Shown: positions 2,257-39,060, counted from the first letter of the stretch. The stretch: 64,000 nucleotides of DNA from a bacterium (GCA_030430245.1 JAUIFY010000001.1:12878-76877), one strand, 5' to 3'. The notes: generated by a model from the sequence alone, not told the origin. Translations and numbers: made by a program.

Positions 2257-3015
2257 GTGAGGGTGCCGTCGGGCTCCCCTCAGGCCGCAAAGGCCGTCGG
2301 AGTTCCGCGGCCGGGTCAGATCTTCGATCCGGTCGCGCGAGCTCTCGACGTGATCGGCGATCGCTGGACCCTCGTTCTCGTGCGCCAGCTGATCGGAGGC
2401 GCGAAGGGGTTCACCGAGCTCCGGCAACGCACGGGAATCGCCCCCCGGGTGCTCTCGGGGCGCCTGCGCCAGTTGACGACCGACGGGTTCGTCGAGCAGG
2501 TCGAGAACGGCGCGCGCTCCGTCTACGCGGTGACGGAGCGCGGGCGCTCGCTCGAGCCCCTGATCTCCTCTCTCGCTCGCTGGTGGATTCACCACGGAAT
2601 CCAGGAGCTGGCGATCGACGTCGACCGTTTCAATGCGACGTCTCCGCAATCGATTCTGGAATCCCTCCCGTTCCTCCTCCGCGAGGAGCGCGCGATGGGT
2701 GAGAACGTCGTCTTCGAGATTCGCCTTCAGGGTGAAGGAGGCGGCGTGTGGTCCGTGGCGATTCGCGACGGACGCTGTGAGGTCGCGCGCGGTTTCGCCG
2801 AGCGCGCGGACGTTCGGTACACCGCCGATGCGAGCGCATGGTGCGGTGTTGCGCTGGGCCTGCTCGACGCACGCGACGTGGTCAAGAAGGGCCTCATGAC
2901 GAAGGACGGGGGCTCTCAGGCCCTCGACCACTACTTCCACCAGCCCACGGCTCTCAGCGGCGGTGGCGCGGGGCGTGAAAAGAAGGCGCGCTCCGAAAGG
3001 AGGAAAGCACCATGA
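2257..3015 (+). CDS. HxlR-family winged-helix transcriptional regulator fused to a C-terminal SCP2-like (sterol carrier / lipid-binding) domain
   Basis: GTG start. VIGDRWTLVLVRQL...FTEL matches the HxlR (DUF24) helix. C-terminal VVFEIRLQGEGGGVWSVAIRDGRCEVARGFAERADVRYTADASAWCGVALGLLDARDVVKKGLMTKDGGSQAL fits an SCP2 fold. Stop overlaps the next gene's ATG (ATGA). Confidence 0.7.
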   Translation: MRVPSGSPQAAKAVGVPRPGQIFDPVARALDVIGDRWTLVLVRQLIGGAKGFTELRQRTGIAPRVLSGRLRQLTTDGFVEQVENGARSVYAVTERGRSLEPLISSLARWWIHHGIQELAIDVDRFNATSPQSILESLPFLLREERAMGENVVFEIRLQGEGGGVWSVAIRDGRCEVARGFAERADVRYTADASAWCGVALGLLDARDVVKKGLMTKDGGSQALDHYFHQPTALSGGGAGREKKARSERRKAP

Positions 3016-4109
3016 TCTCGTTCGGGTTGACCGAAGAGCAAGATGCGATTCGCGGAGCGATTCGCGAGTTCGCGCAAGGAGTGGTTCGACCCCTCGCGCG
3101 CGATTGTGACGAGCAGTCGAAGCTTCCCGACGACTTCCTGCAACAGGTGTGGGAGCTCGGTCTCACGACGACGCAGGTGCCGGAAGCGTTCGGCGGCATG
3201 GGCGCGGATCGGTCGCAGACGACGACGGCGATCGCGCTCGAGGAGCTCGCGTACGGCGATGCCGGGCTCGCGGTGGCCGCTCTCGCTCCGTCGGGGTTCG
3301 TGAACGCGCTCCTGGATCACGGCACCGAGGAGCAGAAGCAGCGCCTGCTTCCCGGGCTCTGCGGCACCGAGTTCGCGTGTGGCACGTTGGCCGTCGTCGA
3401 GCCCGGCGCCATGGCCGACGCGTCGAGGCCGAAGACGACGGCGACGGCGAAGAGCGGGGGCTACGTCCTGAAGGGGACGAAGCGCTTCGTCCCGTTCGGG
3501 GATCGCGCGACGCACTTCCTGGTGGTTGCGGCGCTCGACAGCGAGATCGCCGCCTTCATCGTCGCCCGCGACGCGGCCGGACTGACGATCGGCGCCGAGG
3601 CCGAGAAGAATCTCGGCCTGCGGGCCGTGCCCGTGCACACGCTCGAGCTCGACGGCGTCGAGGTGTCCGACGGCGATCGTCTGGGTGGCTCGGCCGGGGG
3701 CAACGTCCGCGCTCTGCTCGACACCAGCCGCGCCGCACTCGCCTCGTGTCTGGTGGGCGTCGCGCGGGCGGCGGTGGAGTACTGTGTCCCGTACGCGAAA
3801 GAGCGCGTGGCGTTCGGCGAGGAGATCGCGAAGAAGCAGGCGATCGCCTTCATGCTCGCCGAGTCGCACACCGAGGTCGAGGCGATGCGCTGGCTCGTAT
3901 GGCAGGCCGCCTCGAAGCTGGAGAAGGGGCTGGACGCGACGAAGGCCAGCTACCAGGCGTGGAGCTATGCCGGCGAGAAGGGCCTCTGGGTCGCCGACAA
4001 CGGCATTCAGGTGCTGGGTGGTCACGGCTTCACCCGTGAGCACCCGGTCGAGCTGTGGTTCCGCAGTGCGCGCACGCTCGGCGTGCTCGAAGGCACCGTG
4101 TCCATCTAA
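3012..4109 (+). CDS. Acyl-CoA dehydrogenase family protein (first subunit of a tandem ACAD pair)
   Basis: MISFGLTEEQDAIRGAIREFAQ...GGMGADRSQTTTAIALEELAYGDAG...VLGGHGFTREHPVELWFRSARTLGVLEGT is the ACAD N-terminal, middle and C-terminal domain pattern. 365 aa. Confidence 0.8.
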   Translation: MISFGLTEEQDAIRGAIREFAQGVVRPLARDCDEQSKLPDDFLQQVWELGLTTTQVPEAFGGMGADRSQTTTAIALEELAYGDAGLAVAALAPSGFVNALLDHGTEEQKQRLLPGLCGTEFACGTLAVVEPGAMADASRPKTTATAKSGGYVLKGTKRFVPFGDRATHFLVVAALDSEIAAFIVARDAAGLTIGAEAEKNLGLRAVPVHTLELDGVEVSDGDRLGGSAGGNVRALLDTSRAALASCLVGVARAAVEYCVPYAKERVAFGEEIAKKQAIAFMLAESHTEVEAMRWLVWQAASKLEKGLDATKASYQAWSYAGEKGLWVADNGIQVLGGHGFTREHPVELWFRSARTLGVLEGTVSI

Positions 4110-4122
4110 GGGAGACCATCTG

Positions 4123-5307
4123 ATGATCAGTTTCGAATTGAGCGAGTACGACCGCGCGAAGCTCGACGCCATCAAGGAAGAGGGGCTCATCTGCCGCAAG
4201 TACGCGCGGTACTACGACGAGCACGAGGAGACCGAGATTCCGCCGGACGAGCTGCCGGAGGCGAAGGACTTCGCGCCGACGCCGAATCTGGCCTCGAGGC
4301 AGAGCGAGGAGGACTCGGGCCCGTCGGTGATGGCGATGCTCTACACCGTCTACCGGTGCTGGGGCGACTACGCCGTGAAGCTGCGTCAGCCGAAGGCGGG
4401 CGGACTGGGCAACGCCGCGCTGATGGCGGCAGGCACCGACGAGCAGAAGCAGCGATGGATCAACAACTTTCTCGCGATGGCGATCACCGAGCCGGGCTGC
4501 GGCTCCGATCCGTCGCGCGTCACGGCCTCGGCGGTTCTCGACGAAGAGACGAACGAGTGGATCCTGAACGGAGAGAAGATCTTCGTGACGGGAGGTGTTC
4601 GCGCCGACGGCGTCGTGATGTGGGCGACGGTCGACAAGTCGGCGGGCCGCGCCGGAATCAAGTCGTTCCTGGTGATGAAGGGGACGCCCGGCTTCGAGGT
4701 GGCGAAGAAGGAGAAGAAGCTCGGCATCCGCGGTGAGGATACCGCGACGTACGTCTTCTCCGACTGCCGGATTCCGCGTGACCAGCTCCTCGGGGGCAAC
4801 GAAGAGGTTCAGAAGAAGGGCTCGGGCGGCTTCCGGGGCGTGATGAAGACCTTCAACATGACGCGCCCCGCAGTGGCGGCGTTCGGAATCGGCATCTCCG
4901 AGGCGGCGCTGGACTTCACGCGCGAAGAGCTCGAGAAGGCCGGGGTGGATCTGGACTATGGCGCGGGGATGGGCAATCGGTCCGCCGTCGCCGAGAAGTT
5001 CATGAAGCTCGAGGCGCTGCACGAGGCGAGCAAGCTCACGGTTCTCCGTGCCGCCTGGCTCGCGGACCAGGGCCAGCCGAACAACATGGAGTCCTCCGTG
5101 TGCAAGGCGCACGCGGGGTCGGCCGTGCGGGAGATCACGCAGGGGTGCATCGACATCCTGGGGCCGCTCGGCGTGTCGCGCGACAACCTCGTCGAGAAAT
5201 GGATGCGCGATTGCCGCATCATCGACATCTACGAGGGGACGGGGCAGATTCAGCGACTCATCATCGCGCGCGGTCTGTTCGACTACACCCGCGACGACCT
5301 GAACTGA
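4123..5307 (+). CDS. Acyl-CoA dehydrogenase family protein (second subunit of a tandem ACAD pair)
   Basis: The internal ATG (MISFELSEYDRAKLDAIKEEG...) of track ORF 3685..5307 has an aagggagacc RBS. AITEPGCGSDPSRV, YEGTGQIQRLIIAR are ACAD signatures. 394 aa. Confidence 0.8.
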   Translation: MISFELSEYDRAKLDAIKEEGLICRKYARYYDEHEETEIPPDELPEAKDFAPTPNLASRQSEEDSGPSVMAMLYTVYRCWGDYAVKLRQPKAGGLGNAALMAAGTDEQKQRWINNFLAMAITEPGCGSDPSRVTASAVLDEETNEWILNGEKIFVTGGVRADGVVMWATVDKSAGRAGIKSFLVMKGTPGFEVAKKEKKLGIRGEDTATYVFSDCRIPRDQLLGGNEEVQKKGSGGFRGVMKTFNMTRPAVAAFGIGISEAALDFTREELEKAGVDLDYGAGMGNRSAVAEKFMKLEALHEASKLTVLRAAWLADQGQPNNMESSVCKAHAGSAVREITQGCIDILGPLGVSRDNLVEKWMRDCRIIDIYEGTGQIQRLIIARGLFDYTRDDLN

Positions 5308-5501
5308 CCGACGGTATCCGTTCGTTCGGTTCTCGCGGCCGTCGCTCCGTGCGGGGCGGCGGCCGCGTTGCGTTCGGGCGGGGATTCTTCGCGGCCCGCA
5401 GCCCCGCGTCGCGTCGTCGGTACCTCGCGGGCGGCTCTTTCGCCCGTCGGGGTGCCTGGTAACCTCTGCCGAGGTCACGCACTGGGGTTCGCCGCGGCAC
5501 G

Positions 5502-6902
5502 ATGCTCTTCAACTCCCTTCAGTTCGTCGGGTTTCTGCTCGTCGTCCTCACGGTTCACTTCTGGGTCATCCCGGCGTCGCAGGAGCGGGCGCGGCGGCTC
5601 TTTCTCCTGCTCGCGAGCTACGTCTTCTACGGCTCGTGGAATCCGCCGTTCGTCCTCCTCCTCCTCTACTCGACGGTTCTCGACTACGCCGTCGCCCTCC
5701 GGATGGCGCGCACCGAGTCGAGGGCGGGGCGCCGTGGTCTCCTGGGGCTCAGCTTGCTGGGCAACCTCGGCGTTCTCGCCTTCTTCAAGTACGGCAACTT
5801 CCTCGCGGAGACCTACCTGACGCTCGTCTCGCTCGGCCCGGCCCAGCAGAGTGGGCCGGTCGTGGACGTCATCCTCCCCGTCGGGATCTCGTTCTACACG
5901 TTCCAGAGCCTCAGCTACTCGATGGACGTTTACCGGGGGCGCCTCGAGCCGGCGAAGAGCTTCTGGGACCTGGCGCTCTACGTTTCGTTCTTCCCGCAGC
6001 TGGTGGCCGGGCCGATCGTGCGTGCGCGGGAGTTCCTTCCCCAGCTCGAACGCGAGCGCGTCGTTCGGGGCGCGGACGTCGAGTCGAGCCTGGCTCGCAT
6101 CGCGGGCGGGTTGATCAAGAAGGTCGTGTTCGCCGACACCCTCGCGCTCTACGTGGACCAGGTGTGGGCGGACCCGAGCGCGCACGGCGGGCCGGGTTTG
6201 CTTCTCGCGGCGTATGCGTTCGCCTATCAGATCTACTTCGACTTCTCGGGGTACTCGGACATGGCGATCGGGCTCGCACGGCTGTTCGGATTCGAGCTGC
6301 CGGAGAACTTCCTGCGGCCGTACCTCTCGTCGAGTCCGCGGGAGTTCTGGCGCCGCTGGCACGTGACCCTGTCTTCGTGGCTGCGCGACTATCTCTACAT
6401 CTCGCTCGGCGGAAATCGCGGCTCGGAGGCGAGGACGCGGCTGAACCTCCTGATCACCATGTTGCTGGGCGGCCTCTGGCACGGGGCGGGCTGGGCGTTC
6501 GTCGTCTGGGGCGGGTTCCACGGGGGCTTGCTCGTCGCGCAGCGTTGGGCGACCCCGCGCTTTCCGGCGCTCGGCGCGCTGCCGGGTTGGGTTCGAGTCG
6601 GCATCACGTTCCATCTCGTGGTCGTCGGCTGGATTTTCTTCCGGTCGCCGGATCTCTCGACGGCCGGGCAGTTCTTCGCCGGGCTGGTCCGGCCGGGCTT
6701 CGAGCCGAATCCGGACGTGATTCGGGCTCTCGCGGTGCTCTCCGTGGCCGCCCTCGCGCACGTGGTCGGAGTGCCCCAACAATGGCAGCGCGGCCTGGCC
6801 CGTCGGGGTCCGTGGGTCCAGGGCGTCGCGTACGCGTGCGTGGCGGTCCTGGTCTACTTGTTCTCGCCGGCGACGAACCAGTTCATCTACTTCCAGTTCT
6901 GA
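5502..6902 (+). CDS. MBOAT-family membrane-bound O-acyltransferase (AlgI/PatA/DltB-like)
   Basis: MLFNSLQFVGFLLVV... multi-TM protein. FYTFQSLSYSMDVYRG and WRRWHVTLSSWLRDYLYISLGGNRG...WHG carry the MBOAT conserved His region. Confidence 0.8.
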   Translation: MLFNSLQFVGFLLVVLTVHFWVIPASQERARRLFLLLASYVFYGSWNPPFVLLLLYSTVLDYAVALRMARTESRAGRRGLLGLSLLGNLGVLAFFKYGNFLAETYLTLVSLGPAQQSGPVVDVILPVGISFYTFQSLSYSMDVYRGRLEPAKSFWDLALYVSFFPQLVAGPIVRAREFLPQLERERVVRGADVESSLARIAGGLIKKVVFADTLALYVDQVWADPSAHGGPGLLLAAYAFAYQIYFDFSGYSDMAIGLARLFGFELPENFLRPYLSSSPREFWRRWHVTLSSWLRDYLYISLGGNRGSEARTRLNLLITMLLGGLWHGAGWAFVVWGGFHGGLLVAQRWATPRFPALGALPGWVRVGITFHLVVVGWIFFRSPDLSTAGQFFAGLVRPGFEPNPDVIRALAVLSVAALAHVVGVPQQWQRGLARRGPWVQGVAYACVAVLVYLFSPATNQFIYFQF

Positions 6903-6914
6903 GAAGATCCTCTC

Positions 6915-7946
6915 GTGAGTCGACTCGTCACCATCGCCCTCGTTTTCGGCGCGTGTCTCGCGGCGTTCGTCGCCGTGGTTCTGTTGCGGGCCGGAGGCGA
7001 GGTCATGGAGGCGGGTGTTTTCCTGCGGCCGACGCGTGTCGAGCTCGGTGTCACCATGGAGCAGCTCGAGGAGAAGGACGCGCGGGTCGTCTGGCTCGGG
7101 GACTCCACGGTGCTCGATTCGATCGACATCCCATCCTACGCCGACATCGTCGCGGAGCGGATCGCGAAGTCGGGAGACGAGATGCCGCCCCACGGCGTGG
7201 TCGCGATGGTGGGCCTGGATTTCTACCACTACTACTGCATGCTGGGGCGAATCCTCGAGAGAAACCCCGAGGTGGTGGTGCTCGTGGCCCATCTGCGGAT
7301 GTTCGTCGATGGAGCACGCGCGTTCATGGATCTCTGCAGCTCCCTTCCACCGAGCGAGCTTCCCCGGGCGATGCTCCTTCCGTTTCGGGAGCGCGACGTC
7401 GGGCCTCTCGATCTGCTCGGATACCAGCTGCTGCGGCTGCCGGGCGCGGAGACGAGCTTCCTGGCGTACGAAGGGGCGCAGCGACTCTTCCAGGACAGGG
7501 ACCCGACGGGGCTGCTCGCCAAGACGCCGACCTACTTCGAGCGTCTCGGCATGGGCGGCCGGAAGCCGGCGTTGGAGTACCTGCGTTCGTACGCGCTCGA
7601 CCTGGATCGCGAGGATCCCGTGGTTCGAATGATGGGGGCCACCGTCGACATGGCGCGGCGTCACGGGGCCGAGGTGCTCGTCGTCGCGAGCCCGATTCCC
7701 TACGAGAAGCTGGAGGCGCGCGACTGGTATCGGCCGCAGACGATCGACGTCCTTCGCCGCGTCGTCGAGGAGAACGGAGGACACTTCTTCGACGGTCATC
7801 GGGTCCTCCAGAAGCGGCACTACCGCGACGAGTCGGGACACTACACGACCGAGGGCGCGGAGATCCTGGCGGAGGCTCTCGAGCCGACGCTGCGAGAGGT
7901 CCTGGAGGATGGTGCTTCGGCCGGACGTGCTACGGGGGCACCATGA
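6915..7946 (+). CDS. Membrane-anchored SGNH/GDSL-fold protein, AlgJ/AlgX/PatB/DltD-type partner of the MBOAT
   Basis: N-terminal TM segment MSRLVTIALVFGACLAAFVAVVLL. VVWLGDSTV is SGNH block I (GDS). DESGHYTTEGAEILA is block V (DxxH). Lies 12 nt after the MBOAT gene. Confidence 0.65.
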   Translation: MSRLVTIALVFGACLAAFVAVVLLRAGGEVMEAGVFLRPTRVELGVTMEQLEEKDARVVWLGDSTVLDSIDIPSYADIVAERIAKSGDEMPPHGVVAMVGLDFYHYYCMLGRILERNPEVVVLVAHLRMFVDGARAFMDLCSSLPPSELPRAMLLPFRERDVGPLDLLGYQLLRLPGAETSFLAYEGAQRLFQDRDPTGLLAKTPTYFERLGMGGRKPALEYLRSYALDLDREDPVVRMMGATVDMARRHGAEVLVVASPIPYEKLEARDWYRPQTIDVLRRVVEENGGHFFDGHRVLQKRHYRDESGHYTTEGAEILAEALEPTLREVLEDGASAGRATGAP

Positions 7947-9874
7947 GCGAGGGAATCCGTCCCCAGGGCGAGCCGTTCGACGACGACGACGAGACCGTCG
8001 CGGAGGCGCTCGAGAGCGCGAACATCCCCGCGCTCCTGATGAGTCTCGTCCATCTCACGGGTGAGACCGAAGTCCTCCGGGGACCGATCCGTCCTACGAA
8101 GGTCGTCGGGCGGATGAGTCCCGGGATGCCGAAGAGCGAGAAGGCGGAAGTGCGAGCGATGCTGCTCGAGGCGCTGCGCGACTATCGGGATCGGGGCTTC
8201 ACCCTCCCGCCGCCTCCTTCGAGTGAAACCATCCACCGCATGATGAGCTTCGCGACGGGGGACGACGTTCCCGCGGAATACGTGCCGATGATGCGCGAGG
8301 AGATGGCGCTCGACGGATGCGACGCGCGGGAGGTGTCGTGGGACGACGTGCCGCCGGAGGCACGCGAGAAGGTTCGTGTGCTGGTGATCGGTGCGGGGAT
8401 GTCGGGACTACTCGCTGCGATCCGACTCGAGGAGCATGGTGTTCCGTACGACGTCGTCGAGAAGAACGACGCGGTCGGAGGGACCTGGCTCGAGAATTCG
8501 TACCCGGGGTGCCGTGTCGACGTCGCGAATCACTTCTACTGCTACTCGTTCGAGCCGAACCCCGATTGGACCGAGTACTTCGCCCGGCAGCCGGAGCTGC
8601 GGGCGTACTTCGAGGGCTGTGCGACGAAGTACGGGGTGAGGCCGCACATTCGATTCCGGACGGAGGTCGTTTCCGCCGCGTGGGACGAGGCGCGGTCCGT
8701 CTGGGACGTGCGCCTGCGGGGTCCCGATGGTCGCGAGGAGGAGCGGGCCTACCACGTGGTCATCAGCGGCGTCGGGCAGCTCAACCGCCCTCGGCTTCCG
8801 GAGATCGAGGGCCGCGAGACCTTCGCCGGTCCGTGGTTCCACTCGGCGCGTTGGGACCATGAGGTGCCCCTCGAGGGAAAGCGCGTCGGCGTGATCGGCA
8901 CGGGGGCGAGCGCGCTCCAGCTCGTCCCGGAAGTGGCGAAGCGCGCCGAGCGGCTCCACGTGTTTCAGCGCTCGGGCGCGTGGATGAGCCCGAATCCGAG
9001 CTACCACCGCAAGGTTCCGGCCGGAAAGCGGTGGCTTCTGCGCCACGTCCCCTACTACGCGCGGTGGTACCGCTTTCTTCTCTTCTGGCCGGCTTCCGAC
9101 GGACTCCTGCCGTCGCTGATCGTCGATCCCGCGTGGCCCCACCAGCATCGCTCCGTGAACGAGCAGAACGACCAGGTGCGCATCGCGTTCACCGAGTACA
9201 TGAAGCACCAGATCGGCGGCGATCCGGAGCTTCTCGCGAAGGTCGTCCCGACCTATCCGCCGTTCGTGAAGCGGATGCTGCAGGACAACGGGAGCTGGCT
9301 GGGAGCACTCACCCAGGATCACGTGGAGCTCGTCACCGACCCCATCGCGCGCATCACGCCTCGAGGGGTCGAGCTCGCCGGGGGGCGTTTGGTGGACCTC
9401 GACGTGATCGTCTTCGCGACCGGCTTCCTCGCGAACAAGTTCCTCTGGCCGATGAAGATCGTCGGCCGCAACGGTGCGACGCTGCGCGAAGTCTGGGGGG
9501 AGGATCCCTTCGCGTACCTGGGCATCACCGTTCCGCGGTTTCCGAACCTCTTCTGCCTCTACGGCCCGGGAACGAACCTGGCGCACGCCGGCAGCATCAT
9601 CTTCCACTCGGAGTGTCAGGTCCGGTACGTCATGGGGTGCCTGCGGGCCCTTCTGCGGGACGGCCACGCCTCGATGGAGTGCCGCGAGGACGTCGCGGCC
9701 GCATACGAGAAGCGACGGCTCGAGGCCACGGAGCGCACGGTGTGGGCGCATCGGGGAACGCGGAGCTGGTACAAGAACGACGCGGGGCGCGTGACCACCG
9801 TCTCGCCCTGGCGACTCGTGGACTACTGGGGCTGGACGCGCGAGCCGGACCTGGGCGACTTCGAGCTGCGGTAG
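7943..9874 (+). CDS. Baeyer-Villiger-type flavin monooxygenase with ~130-aa N-terminal extension
   Basis: Internal start MSEGIRPQG... of track ORF 5636..9874, with ATGA overlap onto the upstream stop. VLVIGAGMSGLLAAIRL is the FAD GxGxxG motif. FAGPWFHSARWD matches the BVMO fingerprint FxGxxxHxxxW[P/D]. GKRVGVIGTGASALQ is the NADPH site. Confidence 0.8.
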   Translation: MSEGIRPQGEPFDDDDETVAEALESANIPALLMSLVHLTGETEVLRGPIRPTKVVGRMSPGMPKSEKAEVRAMLLEALRDYRDRGFTLPPPPSSETIHRMMSFATGDDVPAEYVPMMREEMALDGCDAREVSWDDVPPEAREKVRVLVIGAGMSGLLAAIRLEEHGVPYDVVEKNDAVGGTWLENSYPGCRVDVANHFYCYSFEPNPDWTEYFARQPELRAYFEGCATKYGVRPHIRFRTEVVSAAWDEARSVWDVRLRGPDGREEERAYHVVISGVGQLNRPRLPEIEGRETFAGPWFHSARWDHEVPLEGKRVGVIGTGASALQLVPEVAKRAERLHVFQRSGAWMSPNPSYHRKVPAGKRWLLRHVPYYARWYRFLLFWPASDGLLPSLIVDPAWPHQHRSVNEQNDQVRIAFTEYMKHQIGGDPELLAKVVPTYPPFVKRMLQDNGSWLGALTQDHVELVTDPIARITPRGVELAGGRLVDLDVIVFATGFLANKFLWPMKIVGRNGATLREVWGEDPFAYLGITVPRFPNLFCLYGPGTNLAHAGSIIFHSECQVRYVMGCLRALLRDGHASMECREDVAAAYEKRRLEATERTVWAHRGTRSWYKNDAGRVTTVSPWRLVDYWGWTREPDLGDFELR

Positions 9875-9904
9875 GGTCTCGCACCGGGTCGACGGCACGA
9901 CGAC

Positions 9905-12844
9905 ATGTCCGATTGGAAAGCGCTGCTCGCGGAAGTGAAGGGCGAGTGCCCCTCCGGGCTCTGGTCGCAGGGAGTCGAGCTCGCGCGCGGAAATGCCGTC
10001 GCCGGCGACTCGCGCGATGGCGCGGAGTGGACGTTTCGCGTTCGTCTGCCGGGCGACGACGTCGCGCCGACCGTGATCCTCTACCCGGAGGACGCCGAAT
10101 GGGATTGCGACTGCGAGGGACCGTGCGATCCGTGTGAGCACGTCGCCGCGTGCGCCATCGCCGCGGCGCAGGATGCGGAGTCGCTCTTTCGGGGAGCGGG
10201 GCGTGTCGGTTCTCTCCGCTACGTGCTGCGCCGGACGGACGCCGGTGTGGTGGTCGATCGCTTTCTCGTGCTCGAGGAGGAAGAGCCGCGTCGCTTGGAA
10301 GAGTCGATCTACGATCTTCTCGAGCGCGAGGGAGCCGATCTGAACTTCGAGCCGAGTCGGGAGGATCTGGATCTCGACGTTCTCCTGGCGCGCCGGGACG
10401 AGCCGATCTCGTTCGAGCGTGCAAAGACGGTGTTGTCGGGGTTGGTCGGCGTGAAGGATCTGCGCCTCGACGGGCGGGAGGTGCGGGCCTCGGCCCAGGC
10501 GTCGTATCCCCGCGCCCGAATCGTCGATGGAACGGGAGGCGGAGTCGAGCTCGTTCTGGAGACGGATCCCGAGGTGGACGAGGTGGTCTCTCCGGGGATC
10601 GCGCGCCTCGGCGACCGTCTTCATCCGTTCGGTGCGGGGGCTCGCTTCGGGAAGGCCTGGGAGCGGCTTCCGTTTCGACGGGCGTTCGCGCGCGACGAGG
10701 TCGGTGAGCTCGTCGGCAAGGTCGTGCCGGAGCTCGAGCGCCACATCCGGGTCGACGTGCAGACCGATCGGCTCCCGGACCGGCAGAAGCGCGGGGAGCG
10801 CCTCGCGCCGTGGATCCAGTTCGAGATCGACACCGTTCCCGAGGGGACGGACGTTCTCGCCCGGATCGTCTACGGCGATCCTCCCGTCGCCCGACTGGAG
10901 GGCGACGAGCTGATCCATCTCCGAGGGGCGGTCCCGACGCGCGACCGGCCGGCCGAGAGGTCTCTCGCCCTGCGGCTGCGCGACGAGCTGAATCTCGCGT
11001 TGGAGCGGCGTGTTCGCTTCGACGCCGGCGATGCGGCGCGACTGCTCTCGGCGCTTTCTTCGTTCGACGACGGGCGGCCCGCCGCGAAGCGAAAGGAGCT
11101 CGAAGACAGGCCGGAGCTCGCGCCACGCCTCCTCTCGGATCCGTCGGGCGGCTCGGGGCCGGAGCTCGTGTTCGATCCGGTGGGAGCCGCGGGCACCGAT
11201 CTGGCATCGGTCGGCGCGGAAGCGGTTCTCGCGGCCTGGCGGCAGGGCCAGAGCCTCGTCCCGCTCGCCGGCGGCGGCTTCGCGAGGGTTCCGGAGGGCT
11301 GGCTGGAGCGGCACGGGCACCTCGTGGCGGACCTTCTCGCGGCGCGCGAGCAGAACGAGGGGCGGATTCCGACGGCCGCGCTTCCGGTCCTGGCCGAGCT
11401 GTGCGAGGCCATGGAGGCGCCGCCCCCCTTCGAGGTGGAGCGCCTGCGCGGCCTTCTCGACGGTGCGGGGTCGGCCGATGCGGTGTCCCTCCCGGCCGGC
11501 TTCCGCGGCGATCTACGGGCGTACCAGCAGGAGGGCGTCGGGTGGCTCACGCGTCTTCGCGACGCGGGGTTGGGTGCGATCCTGGCGGACGACATGGGTC
11601 TCGGGAAGACGGTGCAGGCCCTCTGCGCGATTCGCGGTCGAACGCTGGTCGTCTGTCCGCGGAGCGTCATTCACAACTGGAGCCGAGAGACCGCACGCTT
11701 TCGCCCGGATCTCTCGGTCGCCCTCTATCACGGTCCGCGGCGCGCGTTGACGGACGCGGACGTGACGCTCACGACCTATGCCACGATGCGGAACGACGTC
11801 GACGTGCTGGCCGACGTCGAGTGGGATGCGGTCGTTCTCGACGAGGCGCAGGCGATCAAGAATCCCGACAGCCAGGTCGCCCGCGCGACGTACCGACTCC
11901 GCGCCGGCTTTCGCCTCTCGCTCTCCGGCACGCCCGTGGAGAATCGGCTGGACGAGCTGTGGAGCCAGATGCATTTCGCGAACCGAGGCCTCCTCGGAGG
12001 CCGTCGCGACTTCGCGGAGCGCTACGAGAAGCCGATCCTCGACGGGAGCGCGGAAGTGACCGATCGGTTGCAGCGGCGGCTGCGCCCCTTCCTGCTGCGT
12101 CGCCTCAAGAGAGAGGTGGCGCGAGACCTGCCGCCGCGGACCGAAGCGCTTCTGTATTGCGAGCTCGACGACGAGGAGCGCGCGCTCTACGACGGGGTGC
12201 GTGCGGCGTCACGGGCGGACGTCGTGAAGCAGCTCGGGGAGGGGACGAACGTCATCGCCGCGCTCGAAGCGCTGCTCCGACTACGGCAGGCCGCGTGTCA
12301 TCGCGGGCTCCTTCCGGGGCGCTCGGCGGAGTCGTCGTCGAAGGTGGATGCCCTGTGCGACGCTCTCGACGACGCGGTCGCCGATGGGCACAAGGCGCTC
12401 GTGTTCTCGCAGTGGACGGGAATGCTCGACCTCGTCGAGCCTCATCTCGAACGGCACGAGATCCGCTTCGCGCGGATCGACGGGTCGACGAGGGATCGTG
12501 CCGCCGTCGTGGACGCCTTCCAGGACGAAGCCGGGCCTCCGGTGCTTCTCATCTCCCTGACCGCGGGGGGCACGGGTCTGAACCTGACGGCGGCCGATCA
12601 CGTCTTCCTGCTCGACCCCTGGTGGAACCCGGCGGTCGAAGAGCAGGCGGCGGATCGCGCGCACCGCATCGGCCAGGATCGTCCGGTGATGATCTATCGA
12701 CTGGTGGCCAAGGACACCGTCGAGGAGCGTGTCCTCGATCTCCAGGCGCGGAAGCGGGAGATCGCCGAGAGCGCCCTCTCGGGCGCCGCCGTCGGTCGGG
12801 GCGGCGTCACGCGTGAGGAGATCCTGGCGCTCCTGGCCGACTGA
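9905..12844 (+). CDS. SNF2-family DNA-dependent ATPase/helicase with N-terminal SWIM zinc finger
   Basis: SWIM motif [19 protein letters not shown]2 motifs [52 protein letters not shown] and helicase C-terminal [23 protein letters not shown]. 979 aa. Confidence 0.85.
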
Positions 12845-12847
12845 GCC

Positions 12848-14473
12848 TCACTTGCAGAATCCACCGCCGAGAAACTCGTACGGCTGGCAGTCGTAGATCA
12901 GTCGTCCGGCTTCCCCGTGCATCCAATCCAGCGATCGGATCGCGTGGGGCGGCGGCATGCCGGGCGCGGGGGCGTCCTGCAGCAGGTCCAGAGGGATCGG
13001 GTAGGTGGCCCAGTCCTTCGGTGCACGCCAGCCGGGCGGTGGCACGAGCTGGTGGCGCGTTCCGGCGATCGGATGGATCTGGCGCCACTGGTGGATCGCC
13101 TTGGCCATCTCGGCCACGGTCTCGGGATGCTCCTGGGCCAGGTTGACGTACTCGTAGGGGTCCTCGGACGTGCGGAAGAGGTTGTTCGTGACCTGGACCG
13201 ACATGAGGCCCGTCCGTACCTGCTGAACGAGCTTCCACTCGTCGTTGAAGGCGGTGAGGTTGAAGTAGCCGCTGATCGGCGTCTCCGAAGCGAAGAACAG
13301 ATACTCTTCCCGCGGCACGTGCCGCTGCTCGCGGATCGCGTTCCAGAGGTTGCGGCCGTCGAGGTCGAAGTGGTTCCCGCGGGGGACGCCGGCGGCGGCG
13401 GTGAGTGTCGGGAACAGATCCATCGCCGACATGATGCTGTCGAAGCGTGTTCCCGGCTGGATCTCGGCAGGGTAGCGCAGGGCCGCCACGACGCGGATGC
13501 CTCCTTCGAACGTGTCGCCCTTGCCGCCGCGGAGCGGCACGTTGTCGGCACCGCCGGTCGCGTACGCGGCTCCGCCGTTGTCGCTGAACACGAGGACGAT
13601 CGTGTTCTCGGCGATGCCCTCGGCGTCGAGCGTGTCGAGAACGCGGCCGATCGCTCGATCCATCGCATCGACGACGGCGGCATACACGGGCCGGGCACTG
13701 GGCTGGAGCAGGAGGCGGCGCATCAAGCGTGACTGCTCGGTTTGCGGGCTCCTCGTGTCCTCGCGGTCGTCTTCCATGTCGGCGTACTTCGCGAGCAGAT
13801 CATCGGGCGCCTCGAGCGGCGTGTGCGGCGCGATGAACGGCATGTAGAGAAAGAAGGGGCGGCTCGCGTCGCGTGCCTTGATCCAGCGTTCCGCCTCGTC
13901 GGCGAGCACGAACGTCTCGTAGCCCTCTCCCTCGATCGACGTGCCGTTCGACTGGAAGTCGCGTCCGTTCTGTGCCGCGAAGGGGGGAAAGTAGCCGACC
14001 TCGGTGTGAAGATGGCCGTAGAAGTGGTCGAAGCCGCGCTCGTTGGGGTGGTAGGTTTGCTGTGCGTGTCCGAGATGCCACTTGCCGACCATCGCCGTCT
14101 GGTAGCCGGCGGCCTGGAAGCTCTGCGGCATGAAGTGCTCCGAGGGATGAACGCCGTTCGTCATCCACGGCATGATCACCCCGTACGCGACCCCGAGACG
14201 CATGGGGTCCCGACCGGTCATGAGAGCCGCCCGCGTCGGCGAGCAGATTGGAGTGCTGTAGAAGCGATGCAGCTCGACGCCTTCCGCGGCGATCCGGTCG
14301 ATCGCCGGCGTCTCGATCACTTCCTCGCCATGGAAGCCGACATCGGACCATCCGAGGTCGTCGGCCAGGAAGATCACGACGTTCGGTCGCGCGTCCGGCG
14401 CCGCCAGCGCGGTGGCCGGGCCGAGTGCGAGGAACGAGGCGAGGAGGGCGGTGCGCAGGAGCATGGGGAGCAC
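12848..14473 (-). CDS. Arylsulfatase (formylglycine-dependent sulfatase family), secreted
   Basis: Signal peptide MLPMLLRTALLASFLALGPATALA. Sulfatase signature CSPTRAALMTGR (C-x-P-x-R) and GKWHLG. Confidence 0.85.
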   Translation of the reverse strand: MLPMLLRTALLASFLALGPATALAAPDARPNVVIFLADDLGWSDVGFHGEEVIETPAIDRIAAEGVELHRFYSTPICSPTRAALMTGRDPMRLGVAYGVIMPWMTNGVHPSEHFMPQSFQAAGYQTAMVGKWHLGHAQQTYHPNERGFDHFYGHLHTEVGYFPPFAAQNGRDFQSNGTSIEGEGYETFVLADEAERWIKARDASRPFFLYMPFIAPHTPLEAPDDLLAKYADMEDDREDTRSPQTEQSRLMRRLLLQPSARPVYAAVVDAMDRAIGRVLDTLDAEGIAENTIVLVFSDNGGAAYATGGADNVPLRGGKGDTFEGGIRVVAALRYPAEIQPGTRFDSIMSAMDLFPTLTAAAGVPRGNHFDLDGRNLWNAIREQRHVPREEYLFFASETPISGYFNLTAFNDEWKLVQQVRTGLMSVQVTNNLFRTSEDPYEYVNLAQEHPETVAEMAKAIHQWRQIHPIAGTRHQLVPPPGWRAPKDWATYPIPLDLLQDAPAPGMPPPHAIRSLDWMHGEAGRLIYDCQPYEFLGGGFCK

Positions 14474-14625: not shown

Positions 14626-16005
14626 ATGAGCACGGAGGGTGGGGAGACCGGTCGCGAGATCGGGACCGTCGGTGCGACCGCGATCGTCGCCGGGGCGATG
14701 CTCGGCGTCGGCATCTTCCTGACGCCGCATCTGGTCGCGCAGAGCATCTCGTCGCCGGGGCTCTTCCTTCTACTCTGGGCTCTCGGGGGGGTGCTCGCGG
14801 TGGCCGGCGCCGTGACCTACGGCGAGCTCGGCGCGATGATGTCCGATGCGGGCGGCGACTACGTCTACCTCGGGCGCGCGTTCGGGCCGACGCTGGGCTT
14901 CGCCGCCGGTGTCGTGCTGTTCGTCGGCGTGTTCGGTGGTTCGATCGCGAGCATGTCGGCGGCGTTGAGCCAGTACCAGCTGAGCCTCCTCTTCGGACGG
15001 GTCGGGGTCGATCTGGCCGCCCCGTGGGTTCCTCTCGGCGGAGACGCGAGCCTCACGGGCGTCGAGATCGTCGCGATCGCTCTCGTCCTCGGGCTGACGA
15101 CGTTGAACGTACTGGGCGTGCGGTTGTCTGCGCACACACAGACGCTCCTCACCCTCGTGCCGGTCGTCGTGCTGTCCGGGTTCGCCGTGTTCGCGCTCCT
15201 CACCGCACCCCACGCGACCGCCGTGCCGCCCTCCGCTCCGTCCGGTGGGTCCGCGGCGATCGGAGAGGCGCTCCTGAACATCTACTTCGCGTACGCCGGC
15301 TGGAACGCGGTGGCGTACGTGGGGGGGGAGGTCGCGAATCCGGGGCGCACGATTCCCCGGGCGCTCCTTCTCGGTACGGGCCTCGTGACCGGCCTGTATC
15401 TCCTGTTGTGCGCTTCGTGGATCGCGGTGCTCGGCATGGGTGGCATCGCGCACGCCTTCGAGTCGGGGACCGCGGCGGCCCGCGCCCTGTTCGGACCGAA
15501 CGCCGAGTGGATGGTCGCCCTCATCATCGCGATCGCCCTCGTCGGTTCGGTGAACGCGACCGTCCTGGGCGGGGCGCGCATCGGGTACGCGATGGGAAGG
15601 GACGGCGCGCTGCCGGCGTCCCTCGGCGAGCTGTCTCCGGGTGCTCGGGTTCCCGCGCGGGCGCTCTGGGCGCAAGCGGCCTTGTCGATCGCGCTCGTGG
15701 TGACGGGAACGTTCGAGGAGCTCGTCCAGCTCACCAGCGTGGCGATGTTTCTCCTGGGGTCGCTCACCGTGCTCGCGCTGTTCACGCTCCGACGCCGCGA
15801 GCCGGACGTCGAGCGCCCCTACCGGGCGAGTCTCTACCCGGTTCTGCCGAGCCTCTACCTGCTGACCGCCGTCGCCGTCGTCGGGCTCGAGGTGCGGAAC
15901 TACGTGGCGGGGGACGCGGAATCGGGCCTGCCCCTCCTCGGCATCGGCGTGTTCGTGGGCGTCTGGTCCATACGCCGCGCCTTTCGCGGTCGGGGCGCGG
16001 CGTGA
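14626..16005 (+). CDS. APC-superfamily amino acid permease
   Basis: MSTEGGETGREIGTVGATAIVAGAMLGVGIFLTP... about 12 TM helices. The in-frame ATG inside track ORF 14248..16005 was chosen because upstream residues are Arg-rich junk. Confidence 0.8.
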   Translation: MSTEGGETGREIGTVGATAIVAGAMLGVGIFLTPHLVAQSISSPGLFLLLWALGGVLAVAGAVTYGELGAMMSDAGGDYVYLGRAFGPTLGFAAGVVLFVGVFGGSIASMSAALSQYQLSLLFGRVGVDLAAPWVPLGGDASLTGVEIVAIALVLGLTTLNVLGVRLSAHTQTLLTLVPVVVLSGFAVFALLTAPHATAVPPSAPSGGSAAIGEALLNIYFAYAGWNAVAYVGGEVANPGRTIPRALLLGTGLVTGLYLLLCASWIAVLGMGGIAHAFESGTAAARALFGPNAEWMVALIIAIALVGSVNATVLGGARIGYAMGRDGALPASLGELSPGARVPARALWAQAALSIALVVTGTFEELVQLTSVAMFLLGSLTVLALFTLRRREPDVERPYRASLYPVLPSLYLLTAVAVVGLEVRNYVAGDAESGLPLLGIGVFVGVWSIRRAFRGRGAA

Positions 16006-21750: not shown

Positions 21751-23553
21751 ATGACACTCCGAGCCCTGGTCGTCTCTCTCTCCCTGATCGGATTCGCCCT
21801 CACGGACGCGAACGCGAAGGTCTACCCGGTGAACACGTGCGTGAGCCGGAAGCAGCAGGAAGCAGCGAAGTACTGCCAAGCCTCGCTGCAGGCGTGGGGC
21901 AAGTGGGAGAGGAAGCAGGACGCCGCGGATCGGGACCAGAAGATCGCCGACGCCGCGACGAAGCTCGGCACGAAGTGGGTCGAGATCGAGGCGCAGTCGG
22001 CGGATCATGGTGTGGATTGCGCCGATACGACCCTCGCGTCGGCCGATGCGATCGCCACGATCGATGCCGAGGTCGCCGCGATCGTGGCGGACGTGAACGG
22101 CGGACTCGATCTCGGAGTGAAGGCCGACGCCCGGTGTGGCAAGAAGCTCCTCGCGGCGGCGGGCGCCCTGTGTCGCAAGGCGCTCTTCGCCGACGCCAAG
22201 CGCATCAAGAAGCCGAGCAAGGACGCCGACGGTGCGAAGCGCGACACGCGAGTGGACAAGGCCGTCGCCGCGGCCACGAAGGTCTTCGAGAAGCAGGTCG
22301 CGAAGGGCTGCCCGACGACCAGCGCGCCGCTCGATGCGAGCCACCCGGTCCTGACGAGCATCCGCGAGTCCATCGTCCGGGAAACCACGATCTCCCCAAA
22401 CGTCGACGATGCGCAGTTCTCGACGATCCTTCCCGTCGGCCCGATCGAGTACCTGGGGCAGCAGCTGACGCCGCGCTGTCTGAACGACGGAGCCTACCGC
22501 TACTTCGTCAAGCGCGGCAGCGTGAACAAGGTGCTCATGTACTACCAGGGCGGCGGTGCGTGTTGGGAGGGGCTCACGTGCGGCATCCCGGTCTGCGCGA
22601 ACACCGCCACCGCGGGCGATAACCCGCAGAACGCGTCGACCGGGTTCGCCGACCTCTCCAACCCGGACAATCCGTTCCGTGACTGGAACGTCGTCTTCGT
22701 GACGTACTGCTCGTGCGACATCCACTTCGGCGATTCCGAGCAGCAGTACACGCCGAGCCTCCTCGTGCAGCATCGCGGTTACCACAACGCGCGTGTGGCG
22801 GAGAAATGGGCGCGCGAGCACTTCGTCGATCCCGAAGTCGTCTTCGTCACGGGCTCGAGTGCCGGGGCCTACGGGGCGTGGTTCCACGGACCGTTGCTTC
22901 ACGACGTGTGGCCCGGTGCGCAGTTCCACATCCTGGCGGACGCGGGGAACGGCGTCATCACACAGGACTTTCTCGTGGAGTCGTTCCCGAACTGGAACTT
23001 CCGAGAGAACCTGCCGAAGGATGTCCCCGGTCTGCGGGAGGTCCTCGACTCCAACGAGGGAATCGTCGGCTACACCGAGCTCGCCGCGAGCTACTTCCCG
23101 AACACCAACTGGGCCCACTACACGACGGCATTCGACGGCGGAACGGGCGGACAGACCGGATTCTACAACGTCATGCTGAACGACAACGATCCGATCGCCG
23201 CCCTCAGCTGGTGGGAGGGGAGCTGCCAGTTCTTCGATCAGATGCTCACGCAGTCGCAGCAGACCGCGGCGCTCGTGCCGTCGAACTACCGCTACTACGT
23301 CGGAACCGGCTCCCGGCACACGATGTGGGGCAGCAACAAGGTCTACTCCGACACGACCGGCGGCGTTCCGGCGATCGTCGATTGGGTGAACGGCATGCTC
23401 GCGAGCGGCCCCGGTGCGCCGGATCCGGCGTGGACGAACGTCGAGTGCACGAACTGCGGTCTGACCCTGCCGGGCGACCCCACGCCGCCGGTGATCCCGA
23501 CGCCGCCCTTCGTGCAGCAGGGCTCGGACGTCGTCATCGACTGCGGGCCGTAG
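21751..23553 (+). CDS. Secreted pectinacetylesterase/Notum-family (PAE) esterase with duplicated Cys-helical N-terminal domain
   Basis: Signal peptide MTLRALVVSLSLIGFALTDANA. YYQGGGACWEGLTC and FVTGSSAGAYGAW are PAE-family motifs. N-terminal 200 aa has two C-x11-C ... C helical modules. Confidence 0.75.
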   Translation: MTLRALVVSLSLIGFALTDANAKVYPVNTCVSRKQQEAAKYCQASLQAWGKWERKQDAADRDQKIADAATKLGTKWVEIEAQSADHGVDCADTTLASADAIATIDAEVAAIVADVNGGLDLGVKADARCGKKLLAAAGALCRKALFADAKRIKKPSKDADGAKRDTRVDKAVAAATKVFEKQVAKGCPTTSAPLDASHPVLTSIRESIVRETTISPNVDDAQFSTILPVGPIEYLGQQLTPRCLNDGAYRYFVKRGSVNKVLMYYQGGGACWEGLTCGIPVCANTATAGDNPQNASTGFADLSNPDNPFRDWNVVFVTYCSCDIHFGDSEQQYTPSLLVQHRGYHNARVAEKWAREHFVDPEVVFVTGSSAGAYGAWFHGPLLHDVWPGAQFHILADAGNGVITQDFLVESFPNWNFRENLPKDVPGLREVLDSNEGIVGYTELAASYFPNTNWAHYTTAFDGGTGGQTGFYNVMLNDNDPIAALSWWEGSCQFFDQMLTQSQQTAALVPSNYRYYVGTGSRHTMWGSNKVYSDTTGGVPAIVDWVNGMLASGPGAPDPAWTNVECTNCGLTLPGDPTPPVIPTPPFVQQGSDVVIDCGP

Positions 23554-24100
23554 CCTCGCGACCCCTCGCCGGCTCCGGGGCCGAGTCCCGCGCCGTCGCG
23601 TGGGGAGAGAGAACGGTAGCCGAGCTCGCCGCCGAACGTGACCGGGGAGGCGTAGCCCTGGGTGGAGATGGTCGTCCTGCTTCGCCGAGAGCCGGCCGAC
23701 ACCGGCCCGAGGTGCCCATTCCTCGGCCAGTGCCCATCGCCTGGTCGCCCTCGACGTCCGCGGGACACAAAAAGGGTCCGTCGGCGCGAGGGACCGCGGT
23801 CGGCACGACGGTTGCTCTCCTTCCGCGGCGCAGCGTTCCTCGGAGCGCCGTGACCCTTCAGGCTCGACGGAAAGGAGGCAGATAGAAGCGGTTGGTCGTC
23901 CGGGCGGCGCGGTGGTGCACGCACGCCGCGCCGCCCGCCCTCTCGGCCGGTCGCTCCGCGCGCCCGTTTTCGTGGCAGGCCCGCGCCGTTGCTGCCTCGT
24001 TCTTGCACAGTACCTTCCGACTGCCCCGCGAAGAGTGAGTCGTCCTCTCGGGAAGTCCGCAGGTGTGGCCTGGTACGCTCGTTGCGACTACGCTCGACCC

Positions 24101-25600
24101 ATGGACCGGGATTACACCTTCACGAACTACGACCCGGGCGAGTTCTACGACGAGCTCTTCGACGCCGACGGGAACGCTCGCTCCGACGTCGGCCCGCTCG
24201 TCGAGCAGATCGACGCCCTCGCGCCGGGCGAGCTCGCCGAGCGGCAGCAGTCGATCGAGCGAGCGCTCCTGCGGATGGGCATCACCTTCGCCGTCTACGG
24301 GGACGAAGAGGGAACCGACAAGATCTTCCCGTTCGACATCGTTCCCCGGATCGTCTCCGGTCAGGAGTGGCTCCGGGTCGAAGCCGGCCTCGGGCAGCGG
24401 ATCCGGGCTCTGAACCACTTCATCGGAGACGTCTACGGCGCGCAGAACATCGTCCGGGACGGCGTGTTGCCCGGCGAGATCCTGAGCGAGGCGAAATCGT
24501 TCCGGGAGGTCTGTCGAGGTCTGGAGCCGCCGCGGGGGATCTGGTGCCACGTGACCGGGACGGACCTGGTGCGCGACGCCGACGGCACACTGTACGTGCT
24601 CGAGGACAACCTCCGTTGCCCGTCCGGAGTCTCCTACGTTCTCCAGAACCGTCTCCTCATGAAGCGCAGCTTCCCGGAGATCTTCCAGGCGTCGCAGGTT
24701 CGGCCGGTGATCGACTATCCCCACCGCTTGTACCGCACCCTCCAGTACCTGGCGCCCGATCACATCGACGACGCGACGATCGTCGTGCTCACGCCGGGCA
24801 TCTACAACTCTGCCTACTACGAGCACTCCTTCCTCGCGCAGCAGATGGGCGTGGAGCTCGTCGAGGGCCGGGACCTCGTGGTGAAGGACGGCTTCGTCTT
24901 CATGCAGACCACCGATGGTCTGCAGCGGGTCGACGTCATCTACCGGAGGATCGACGACGACTTCATCGATCCCGAGGCGTTTCGCGAGGACTCGATGCTC
25001 GGTGTGCCCGGGCTGATGAACGTCTACCGCCAGGGTCGTGTCGCGCTGGCCAACGCGCCCGGCACGGGCATCGCCGACGACAAGGTCATCTACGCGTTCG
25101 TTCCCGACATGATTCGCTACTACCTCGGCGAGGATCCGATCCTGCCGAACGTTCCGACGTACGTCTGCGCGCGCGAAGACGACCGCCGCTACGTTCTCGA
25201 TCATCTGGGCGAGCTGGTCGTGAAGCCCGCCAACGAGGCGGGCGGGTACGGAATGCTCATCGGCCCCCACTCCTCCGAGGGGGAGCGGGCCGAGTTCGCG
25301 GACCGCATCCGCGCGAATCCGCGCAACTACATCGCGCAGCCGACGCTCTCCCTTTCCCGGGTGCCGACGCTCGTCGGCGGTCACTTCGAGGGACGCCACG
25401 TCGACCTGCGACCGTACATCCTCTTCGGAGAAGACACCTGGGTTCTGCCGGGAGGCCTCACGCGTGTCGCGTTGCGAAAGGGGTCCCTGGTCGTCAACTC
25501 CTCGCAGGGGGGCGGAAGCAAGGACACGTGGGTGCTGGCGCTCTCGCCCGGCGAGGCGGCGGCCGCGGACGACCATCTCTCCGAGCGAACGGAGGCGTGA
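24101..25600 (+). CDS. Circularly permuted ATP-grasp type 2 protein
   Basis: [21 protein letters not shown]... has the CP_ATPgrasp_2 (DUF404/407) signature run ...[15 protein letters not shown]...VVKP...GGYGM. Confidence 0.8.
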
Positions 25601-25603
25601 GCC

Positions 25604-26581: not shown

Positions 26582-26586
26582 GCGTC

Positions 26587-34730: not shown

Positions 34731-34982
34731 TTGCCACGAAAGCTCCACATGTTGACCGGTGCCGTCTACGAGACGGACGGTGCGGGCGTCGTTCGCGTCA
34801 CCACCCGGCAGGGGAGAGTCGGTCGCTTCGACTCCCACGGCGCGTGGATCGACGGCGAGCTTCGCGAGGCCGACCCCCACCTGTGCCTCTGGGTGGGAGG
34901 CCGCCAACTGCCGGAGGGCAAGGCGGCGAGCTTCAAGGACCTCCCGCTCAAGACCGGTCGCGAGGAGGGAGCCGACGCATGA
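34731..34982 (+). CDS. Small conserved-looking protein (83 aa) translationally coupled to the Rieske oxygenase
   Basis: MPRKLHMLTGAVYETDGAGVVRVTTRQGRVGRFDSHGAWIDGELREADPHLCLWVGGRQL... is not Arg-rich junk. Its stop overlaps the Rieske ATG (ATGA). The true start may be the internal Met at residue 7. Confidence 0.45.
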   Translation: MPRKLHMLTGAVYETDGAGVVRVTTRQGRVGRFDSHGAWIDGELREADPHLCLWVGGRQLPEGKAASFKDLPLKTGREEGADA

Positions 34983-36319: not shown

Positions 36320-36337
36320 GCGGATCCGCGGCCGCGC

Positions 36338-39047: not shown

Positions 39048-39060
39048 GCCCGTTTCCGGG

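Follow-up and report, generated by a model that had tools for sequence, protein, structure and literature searches.

An MBOAT-SGNH acyltransferase pair beside a Baeyer-Villiger monooxygenase gene: probably two unrelated modules in a syntenic backbone

When the gene of a Baeyer-Villiger monooxygenase (BVMO) follows and overlaps the genes of a membrane acyltransferase system, does the redox enzyme belong to that system? This question is raised by positions 5502-9874 of a 64,000-nt stretch of bacterial DNA (GCA_030430245.1, JAUIFY010000001.1:12878-76877; ~68% GC), here called the window. Three plus-strand open reading frames (ORFs) lie there, encoding an MBOAT-family membrane O-acyltransferase, its membrane-anchored SGNH-fold partner and a type I BVMO. 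A first-pass annotation had proposed that they form an undescribed unit in which the BVMO acts as a third functional component. Our comparisons of gene order suggest that the locus very probably consists of two unrelated modules side by side, an MBOAT-SGNH pair and an independent BVMO, rather than a three-gene unit. The source organism and the six lineages compared below probably belong to Candidatus Binatia, an assignment resting on the names of related metagenome-assembled genomes (MAGs).

Gene order around the monooxygenase

The contexts of the closest BVMO orthologues, whose mutual identity is 74-80%, define six lineages. Lineage A comprises the window and two contigs 93-95% identical to it (L018/L019), and lineage B two contigs of one organism (L001 and L016, with MBOAT and partner 100% identical between them); lineage C is L002-4, D is L017, E is L101 and F is L102. 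With acyl-CoA dehydrogenase and short-chain dehydrogenase/reductase abbreviated to ACAD and SDR, and minus-strand genes marked (-), lineage A reads MscL-HxlR-ACAD-ACAD-MBOAT-partner-BVMO-SNF2-sulfatase(-). Lineage C reads SDR(-)-patatin-MBOAT-partner-BVMO-SNF2-sulfatase(-), with 48 nt between partner and BVMO. In lineage B, ACAD-ACAD-SDR(-)-patatin-MBOAT-partner is followed by rhodanese(-)-biotin carboxylase(-)-carboxyltransferase(-) and then by BVMO-SNF2-sulfatase(-). The pair is absent from lineages D (MscL-HxlR-ACAD-ACAD-SDR(-)-rhodanese(-)-BVMO-SNF2-sulfatase(-)) and E (RND efflux-SDR(-)-BVMO-SNF2-sulfatase(-)), and lineage F reads ACAD-patatin-BVMO-SNF2-sulfatase(-), with a gap of 243 nt between patatin and BVMO.

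The BVMO-SNF2-sulfatase block is present in all six lineages, each time with an intact BVMO, while the MBOAT-partner pair abuts the BVMO in two (A and C), is separated from it in one (B), is absent from two (D and E) and has decayed in one (F). In lineage B the pair and the BVMO are 4.2 kb apart with three opposite-strand genes between them, and thus the BVMO there needs a promoter of its own. The gap in lineage F (L102 2538-2780) holds a 31-codon relic of the GDS block of the partner (tblastn E 8e-5), whose translation contains VWIGDSTLVETVRVPSW, VVWIGDSTLVETVRVPSWLGRVAEQPEERG and VVWIGDSTLVETVRVPSW and then runs into stop codons; since this relic lies next to an intact BVMO, it points to loss of the pair in situ and not to absence of gain. 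The two genes downstream serve as synteny markers only. The SNF2-family helicase (9905-12844, plus strand; Pfam SNF2-rel_dom at E 6e-61, and Helicase_C) is directly 3' of the BVMO in 6/6 lineages, and the sulfatase convergent with it (12848-14473, minus strand; Pfam Sulfatase at E 4.7e-63) keeps its place in each of the five lineages whose contigs extend far enough.

To look beyond these lineages, metagenome contigs were scanned with the BVMO alignment as query, which yielded 80 wider BVMO loci at 53-69% identity, 56 of them with at least 3 kb of flank. Homologues of MBOAT, partner, SNF2 helicase and sulfatase are missing from all 80, and a Myxococcota BVMO orthologue (68% identity) lies in an unrelated gene context. 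Viewed from the other side, over ten independent contexts of partner homologues, a BVMO adjoins the pair in none of the eight contexts outside lineages A and C; tblastn with the window BVMO against the partner-side loci found it only in L002-L004, which also share the SNF2 and sulfatase genes. As these two genes are kept wherever the adjacency of pair and BVMO is kept, the adjacency is best read as inherited synteny. Conservation of the three-gene order in relatives had been set as the test of the proposed unit; the order is kept only within a wider synteny that includes the helicase and the sulfatase, and these counts speak against the BVMO as a functional third component.

In a neighbour-joining tree of the BVMOs, whose bootstrap values are unreliable because of a rooting mismatch, D appears outermost and B next, and A groups with C and F; our argument rests on presence and absence in the lineages, not on an order of events taken from this tree. 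Most probably the contact of pair and BVMO, together with their overlap, is a by-product of gene loss in the variable segment of a syntenic backbone, MscL-HxlR-ACAD-ACAD-[SDR]-[patatin]-[MBOAT-partner]-[rhodanese-acyl-CoA carboxylase]-BVMO-SNF2-sulfatase. Patatin, rhodanese and carboxylase genes were not found anywhere in the 64-kb window.

Upstream, at 2257-5307, two ACAD genes lie side by side; the first is overlapped by the gene of an HxlR-type regulator that has a weak SCP2 domain, and the second has no match to the N-terminal ACAD domain. This HxlR-ACAD-ACAD run is syntenic in A, B and D (the F contig has the second ACAD only) and may point to a heteromeric ACAD pair. At the far end of the backbone, the ORF 403-2220 (605 aa) was rejected as a real gene: it is a high-GC artefact in which only the 3' part, 1784-2185, codes for MscL (77% identity to the L017 MscL).

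The overlap between partner and monooxygenase

The stop of the partner (TGA, 7944-7946) does overlap the start of the BVMO (ATG at 7943) by 4 nt as ATGA, as the first-pass annotation had observed, and the same overlap is found in L018/L019. The overlap is limited to lineage A, and in lineage C a 48-nt spacer stands in its place, so that translational coupling does not hold up as a conserved feature. In lineage A the partner carries a lineage-specific C-terminal tail (about codons 334-343; 7914-7946, plus strand) that ends in the ATGA; this tail is modelled at a predicted local distance difference test score (pLDDT) below 50 and is absent from orthologues of 332-333 aa. The DNA of the window tail aligns with the 48-nt partner-BVMO spacer of L002, which suggests that the partner of lineage A lost its original stop and is read through to the TGA within ATGA. 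The BVMO gene opens with ATGA in all lineages aligned (A, B and C) because its second codon begins with A.

Overlaps of this type are frequent nearby. Exactly 4 nt are shared by 10 of the 30 same-strand adjacent gene pairs in the window, an approximate figure from a rough gene model based on GC content at third codon positions (GC3), with the partner gene added by hand. The amino-acid permease and TrmO genes, seemingly unrelated in function, share a GTGA at 16002-16005, the HxlR and ACAD genes an ATGA at 3012-3015, and an overlap between UvrD helicase and aminotransferase genes is seen in related loci. Since a third of same-strand junctions overlap alike, the ATGA overlap is real but is weak evidence of function and carries little information on it. 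A signal scan of 5200-10100 returned 0 promoter-like sites and 3 terminator-like sites against 2.4 expected, and is uninformative.

The acyltransferase pair and the monooxygenase as separate systems

The MBOAT (5502-6902, 466 aa; all features of the three genes are on the plus strand) matches Pfam MBOAT (PF03062) at E 1.3e-32, and its best matches among solved structures are those of DltB (6bug and 8jem, E ~8e-29), in agreement with the family first assigned to it. We assign the enzyme to the PatA/AlgI type rather than to DltB; the NCBIfam DltB model (TIGR04091) scores 171.7 bits, far under its cutoff of 375. The protein is 52-83% identical to the partner-adjacent MBOATs of seven other loci. 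In all eight homologues the N-terminus MLFNSL, the conserved MBOAT catalytic His of the GLWHGA motif (H327; 6471-6488) and the C-terminal FIYFQF (residues 461-466; 6882-6899) are the same. FIYFQF, with Tyr463 as the predicted acyl acceptor, fits the C-terminal FXYXXF “acyl shuttle” motif that SGNH-partnered MBOATs bear (Anderson et al. 2025, PMC12148441). There the conserved MBOAT His, whose catalytic role is described for PatA and DltB, catalyses auto-acetylation of the motif's invariant Tyr with acetyl-CoA as donor, and the acylated Tyr then hands its acyl group on to the catalytic Ser of the SGNH partner; DltB, which has no such motif, relies on the microprotein DltX (PMC12148441).

The partner (6915-7946, 343 aa, GTG start) begins 12 nt past the MBOAT stop. 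Its predicted transmembrane (TM) anchor is a single strongly hydrophobic N-terminal segment (residues 4-24; nt 6924-6986), and DltD is its best fold match among solved structures (231-235 residues aligned), so that the earlier description as an SGNH-fold, TM-anchored protein stands, here as a DltD-like acyltransferase partner. The Pfam model Lipase_GDSL_2 stays below threshold (E 1e-3; 20.1 bits, cutoff 32.9) and comparison of the single sequence with the PDB gave no significant match, while a profile against PDB sequences reached a GDSL acetyl-xylan esterase at E 2.6e-4 and PatB at E 1.5. A search via a word index found 17 relatives, all from metagenomes or MAGs. Across the 18 aligned sequences, the window included, G62-D63-S64-T65 of the GDST block (nt 7098-7109) and Asp305 and His309 (nt 7824-7841) are invariant, and Ser64, His309 and Asp305 make up the putative catalytic triad.

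A profile search without the word index widened the partner family to 202 representative clusters (50% identity) at E<=1e-30, nearly all of 330-360 aa, and no Pfam or NCBIfam model captures it. A profile of the six closest partners found only 4 loci in reference genomes, where coverage of the family is thus thin. Unusually long homologues (P0177, P0225, P0154, P0269 and P0208) have no Pfam match and hence give no evidence of informative fusions. Put modestly, the partner appears to represent an uncurated DltD-like SGNH family whose oxyanion and block V arrangement departs from the canonical one, which would be mildly new. At L005 6161-8888, on a contig shared with L012, there is a 295-aa partner paralogue that has neither an N-terminal TM anchor nor an adjoining MBOAT; it is preceded by a 571-aa protein without a Pfam match, possibly another kind of acyl-donor protein in the membrane.

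MBOAT and partner are adjacent in nine of the ten contexts: the window, L001/L016, L002, GhCdR-G1, L008/9, L010, L013, L014 and L015. Among these, L008/9 is counted as paired with a divergent arrangement and a GDSL paralogue in between, and the sole unpaired context is L005/L012, where the truncated paralogue follows the unannotated 571-aa protein. With FIYFQF and His327 invariant in eight MBOATs, the window pair has the class features of the PatA/PatB type and not those of Dlt. Four of the five sequence and structure hallmarks of the MBOAT-SGNH class are present, namely the MBOAT His, FXYXXF, an adjacent anchored SGNH protein and conserved pairing. Judged by these sequence features, the pair is a standard bacterial MBOAT-SGNH two-component acyltransferase of the PatA/PatB type, and the classic two-component O-acyltransferase arrangement recognised at the outset is upheld by the shuttle motif and the conserved adjacency. 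In the Eisenbacteria MAG of L008 and L009 (L008 5515-9029, L009 163-3677), the MBOAT is divergent from two tandem partner-family (GDSL) paralogues with 33% and 36% identity to the window partner, and genes for an epimerase and a sulfatase lie nearby.

Comparison with known systems leads to the same class. Like PatA/PatB, the window system combines the MBOAT catalytic His with a C-terminal FXYXXF (FIYFQF here, FIYANF in NgPatA; PMC12148441), has in the adjacent gene an SGNH-fold protein anchored by one N-terminal TM segment and bearing a putative Ser/His/Asp set, needs no carrier protein or DltX-like microprotein, and stands alone with no polymer-synthesis genes nearby. It differs from PatA/PatB in that the window has no adjacent gene for an Ape1-type O-acetyl-peptidoglycan esterase. 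With DltB/DltD it shares the best structure match of the MBOAT, the best fold match of the partner and the N-terminal membrane anchoring of the partner protein. A Dlt D-alanylation system was rejected: no DltA, DltC or DltX lies nearby (the flanks are ACADs and the BVMO), TIGR04091 falls short of its cutoff, and the shuttle is fused to the MBOAT. A further difference from Dlt is that the source, most likely Binatia, is presumably Gram-negative and without teichoic acids. The logic of an MBOAT with a periplasmic SGNH-like transferase is also that of AlgI/AlgJ/AlgF/AlgX and WssH/WssI, and the neighbours of distant partner-family members include an AlgX-domain protein and glycan-modifying genes. 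An alginate or cellulose acetylation system was dismissed as well, with no alginate or cellulose synthase and no AlgF among the annotated genes of the 64-kb window. In AlgJ and AlgX the order is reversed, Asp-x-His and then Ser, whereas the window partner keeps to the canonical order, in which Ser comes first and Asp/His come at the end.

We then propose how the pair might work. By analogy with PatA/PatB, the MBOAT would take an acyl group, probably acetyl, from cytoplasmic acyl-CoA, and His327 would catalyse its transfer to Tyr463 of the MBOAT's own FIYFQF at the outer face of the membrane, as the mechanism in PMC12148441 suggests. From there the acyl group would pass to Ser64 of the anchored partner and then to an extracytoplasmic acceptor. 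A cell-envelope glycan is the favoured acceptor, because distant family members sit in glycan-modification clusters: in GhCdR-G1 and L013 the pair lies amid a GT9 glycosyltransferase, an epimerase, methyltransferases, radical-SAM enzymes and an AlgX-domain SGNH protein, and the epimerase and sulfatase genes of L008/L009 agree with this. For a pair that stands alone, peptidoglycan would be plausible instead. Some 14 kb downstream, at 21751-23553, the window encodes a 600-aa protein with a pectin-acetylesterase domain (PAE/Notum family), a possible de-acylase with no evidence of a link.

The BVMO (7943-9874, 643 aa) carries an N-terminal extension of ~140 aa and matches the solved structures of PAMO (1w4x, E 1e-66), steroid monooxygenase and CHMO at E 1e-66 to 1e-52, and Pfam FMO-like at E 1.4e-20. 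Its fingerprint FAGPWFHSARWD (residues 294-305; nt 8822-8857), which had been called perfect, is an exact fit to FxGxxxHxxxW[P/D], reportedly defined as the type I BVMO fingerprint by Fraaije and colleagues in 2002. The FAD motif GAGMSG (residues 150-155; nt 8390-8407) and the NADPH motif GTGASA (residues 319-324; nt 8897-8914) complete the set; the residues of the fingerprint and of these Rossmann motifs are invariant in 15 orthologues, and the protein has no TM segment. The enzyme would thus be soluble and cytoplasmic, using FAD and NADPH to turn a ketone into an ester independently of the pair. The fingerprint and the two Rossmann motifs are shared with HAPMO, PAMO, CHMO and steroid monooxygenase, and an extension of ~140 residues is described for HAPMO among characterised type I BVMOs (PMC10028610). 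The JGI name “HAPMO” on many orthologues is an automatic name only, and the window BVMO differs from HAPMO in having no hapD-type esterase or aromatic-catabolic genes adjacent to it.

Homologues of the BVMO number 7696 at E<=1e-50, with named ones from Binatia, Myxococcota, Eisenbacteria, Dormibacteraeota and “Deltaproteobacteria”. Among the top 120, identity never falls below 64% and lengths run from 611 to 672 aa, with nearly all between 640 and 662. This clade of ~640-aa enzymes (window 7943-9874, P0018-P0137) is unusually conserved for a catabolic enzyme, and its N-terminal extension is kept too. Over the 80 wider loci the commonest neighbours are SDR (12), Zn alcohol dehydrogenase (11) and alpha/beta hydrolase (6), the usual company of catabolic BVMOs, and no neighbour is kept in more than 15% of them.

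Other parts of the window hold further gene runs. The one at 23972-33343 comprises a circularly permuted ATP-grasp gene, an Alpha-E gene, a transglutaminase/DUF2126 gene (1105 aa), an ATP-grasp and Alpha-E fusion (850 aa) and a transglutaminase-like gene, with 4-nt overlaps at two junctions; it is a known but poorly understood conserved neighbourhood. At 34844-43727 there are a Rieske oxygenase alpha subunit, an EcKL-type kinase, two SDRs, a P450, an ABM monooxygenase, two ACADs and a ThuA-like gene, a dense cluster for oxidation and lipid catabolism that is in keeping with the catabolism of hydrocarbons and fatty acids reported for Binatota (PMC8262859); BVMOs and acetyltransferases are not mentioned in that genome paper. 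At 48721-52079, two consecutive ORFs (563 and 556 aa) with a TTGA overlap and a strong coding GC3 bias have no Pfam match and are followed by a Ysc84-domain gene.

Competing explanations and significance

One alternative is that MBOAT, SGNH partner and BVMO make up one functional operon, in which the BVMO would produce or alter an unusual ester or acyl donor, or act on what the pair has acylated. The shared strand, the overlap at 7943-7946, the identical arrangement in the close relatives L018/L019 and the adjacency in lineage C would all suit such an operon, and no paper in the literature searched names both MBOAT and Baeyer-Villiger, so that the unit would be undescribed. The junction, however, is broken or absent in four of the six lineages with the BVMO intact, the SNF2 and sulfatase genes are kept alongside wherever the adjacency survives, and the linkage recurs in neither the wider BVMO loci (0/80) nor the partner contexts outside A and C (0/8). 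The overlap itself is a lineage-specific read-through of a type common in the window. Two further points count against it: the BVMO is cytoplasmic whereas prediction puts the SGNH catalytic domain outside the cytoplasm, on the opposite side of the membrane, and such MBOATs use acyl-CoA thioesters (PMC12148441) whereas a BVMO yields oxygen esters. We consider this operon most improbable, and scarcely more credence goes to the trio as a real functional unit in the window's own lineage. The absence of such a unit from the literature stands as first reported, while the comparative data indicate no such unit. Two related ideas together have a very slim chance: that in lineages A and C the juxtaposition made a co-expressed operon to which the BVMO was recruited, where it might act on a keto-lipid or keto-acyl substrate with the ester product feeding or being processed by the pair, and that the pair, lying amid acyl-CoA and lipid genes and beside a patatin gene in sister lineages, might acylate a lipid rather than a glycan.

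Agreement with two unrelated modules on the main point comes from a different proposal, which differs in giving the BVMO local partners. Here the BVMO would belong to a secondary-alcohol or ketone catabolic set with the SDR, a patatin-like esterase and the ACADs, running from alcohol to ketone, ester and acid and then to beta-oxidation, and the pair would be a passenger in the island. Lineages B, C, D and E each have a divergent SDR beside the BVMO or close to it, a patatin-family gene is nearby in B, C and F, the ACAD pair with its HxlR/SCP2 regulator lies upstream in A, B and D (again, only the second ACAD on the F contig), and the neighbour counts of the wider loci (SDR 12, Zn alcohol dehydrogenase 11, alpha/beta hydrolase 6 of 80) fit such a set. 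Yet the window has no orthologue of that SDR or of the patatin, its other SDRs are just 26-37% identical, no neighbour exceeds 15% of the wider loci, and the patatin is without demonstrated activity on BVMO-type esters; we regard the catabolic set as a tentative possibility. The pair could also be a horizontally acquired two-gene cassette inserted upstream of the BVMO by chance, as its presence in A, B and C and absence from D and E would allow. This is unlikely, since the relic in lineage F is decay in situ and hence loss, three lineages have the pair at one and the same point of the backbone, the MBOAT identities of 80-83% track those of the flanking genes, and the GC3 of the pair (0.91 and 0.83) is in line with the 0.85-0.88 of the neighbours. 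No mobility genes or repeats were noticed, with no dedicated repeat search made at the junctions.

Several observations weigh against our preferred reading of a PatA/PatB-type pair beside an independent BVMO. The genes of lineage A share a strand and overlap by 4 nt, and no terminator was detected, so co-transcription of the pair with the BVMO is likely in that lineage, where it would be incidental. Lineage C keeps the adjacency too, with proteins 57-83% identical, which could in principle reflect selection. For the pair itself, the spacing of Asp305 and His309 is DxxxH and not the canonical DxxH in the 18 partners, across which the usual block III Asn is not conserved. There are no glycan-biosynthesis genes among the annotated genes of the 64-kb window, and the surroundings of the pair are mostly acyl-CoA and lipid catabolism genes, which leaves the glycan acceptor without local support.

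Together, our results suggest that same-strand adjacency with an ATGA overlap, in a genome of 68% GC, is a tempting but weak sign of function. The neighbourhood is ordinary, and beyond annotation its significance is small. For the BVMO, the clade is striking in its conservation across phyla, with no characterised member identified, and may interest the biocatalysis field. The partner family, uncurated and uniform at ~330-360 aa, could join the catalogue of envelope-acylation systems. For the organism, the FXYXXF motif in the window MBOAT suggests that the PatA/PatB mechanism probably extends to this uncultured group, likely the Binatia.

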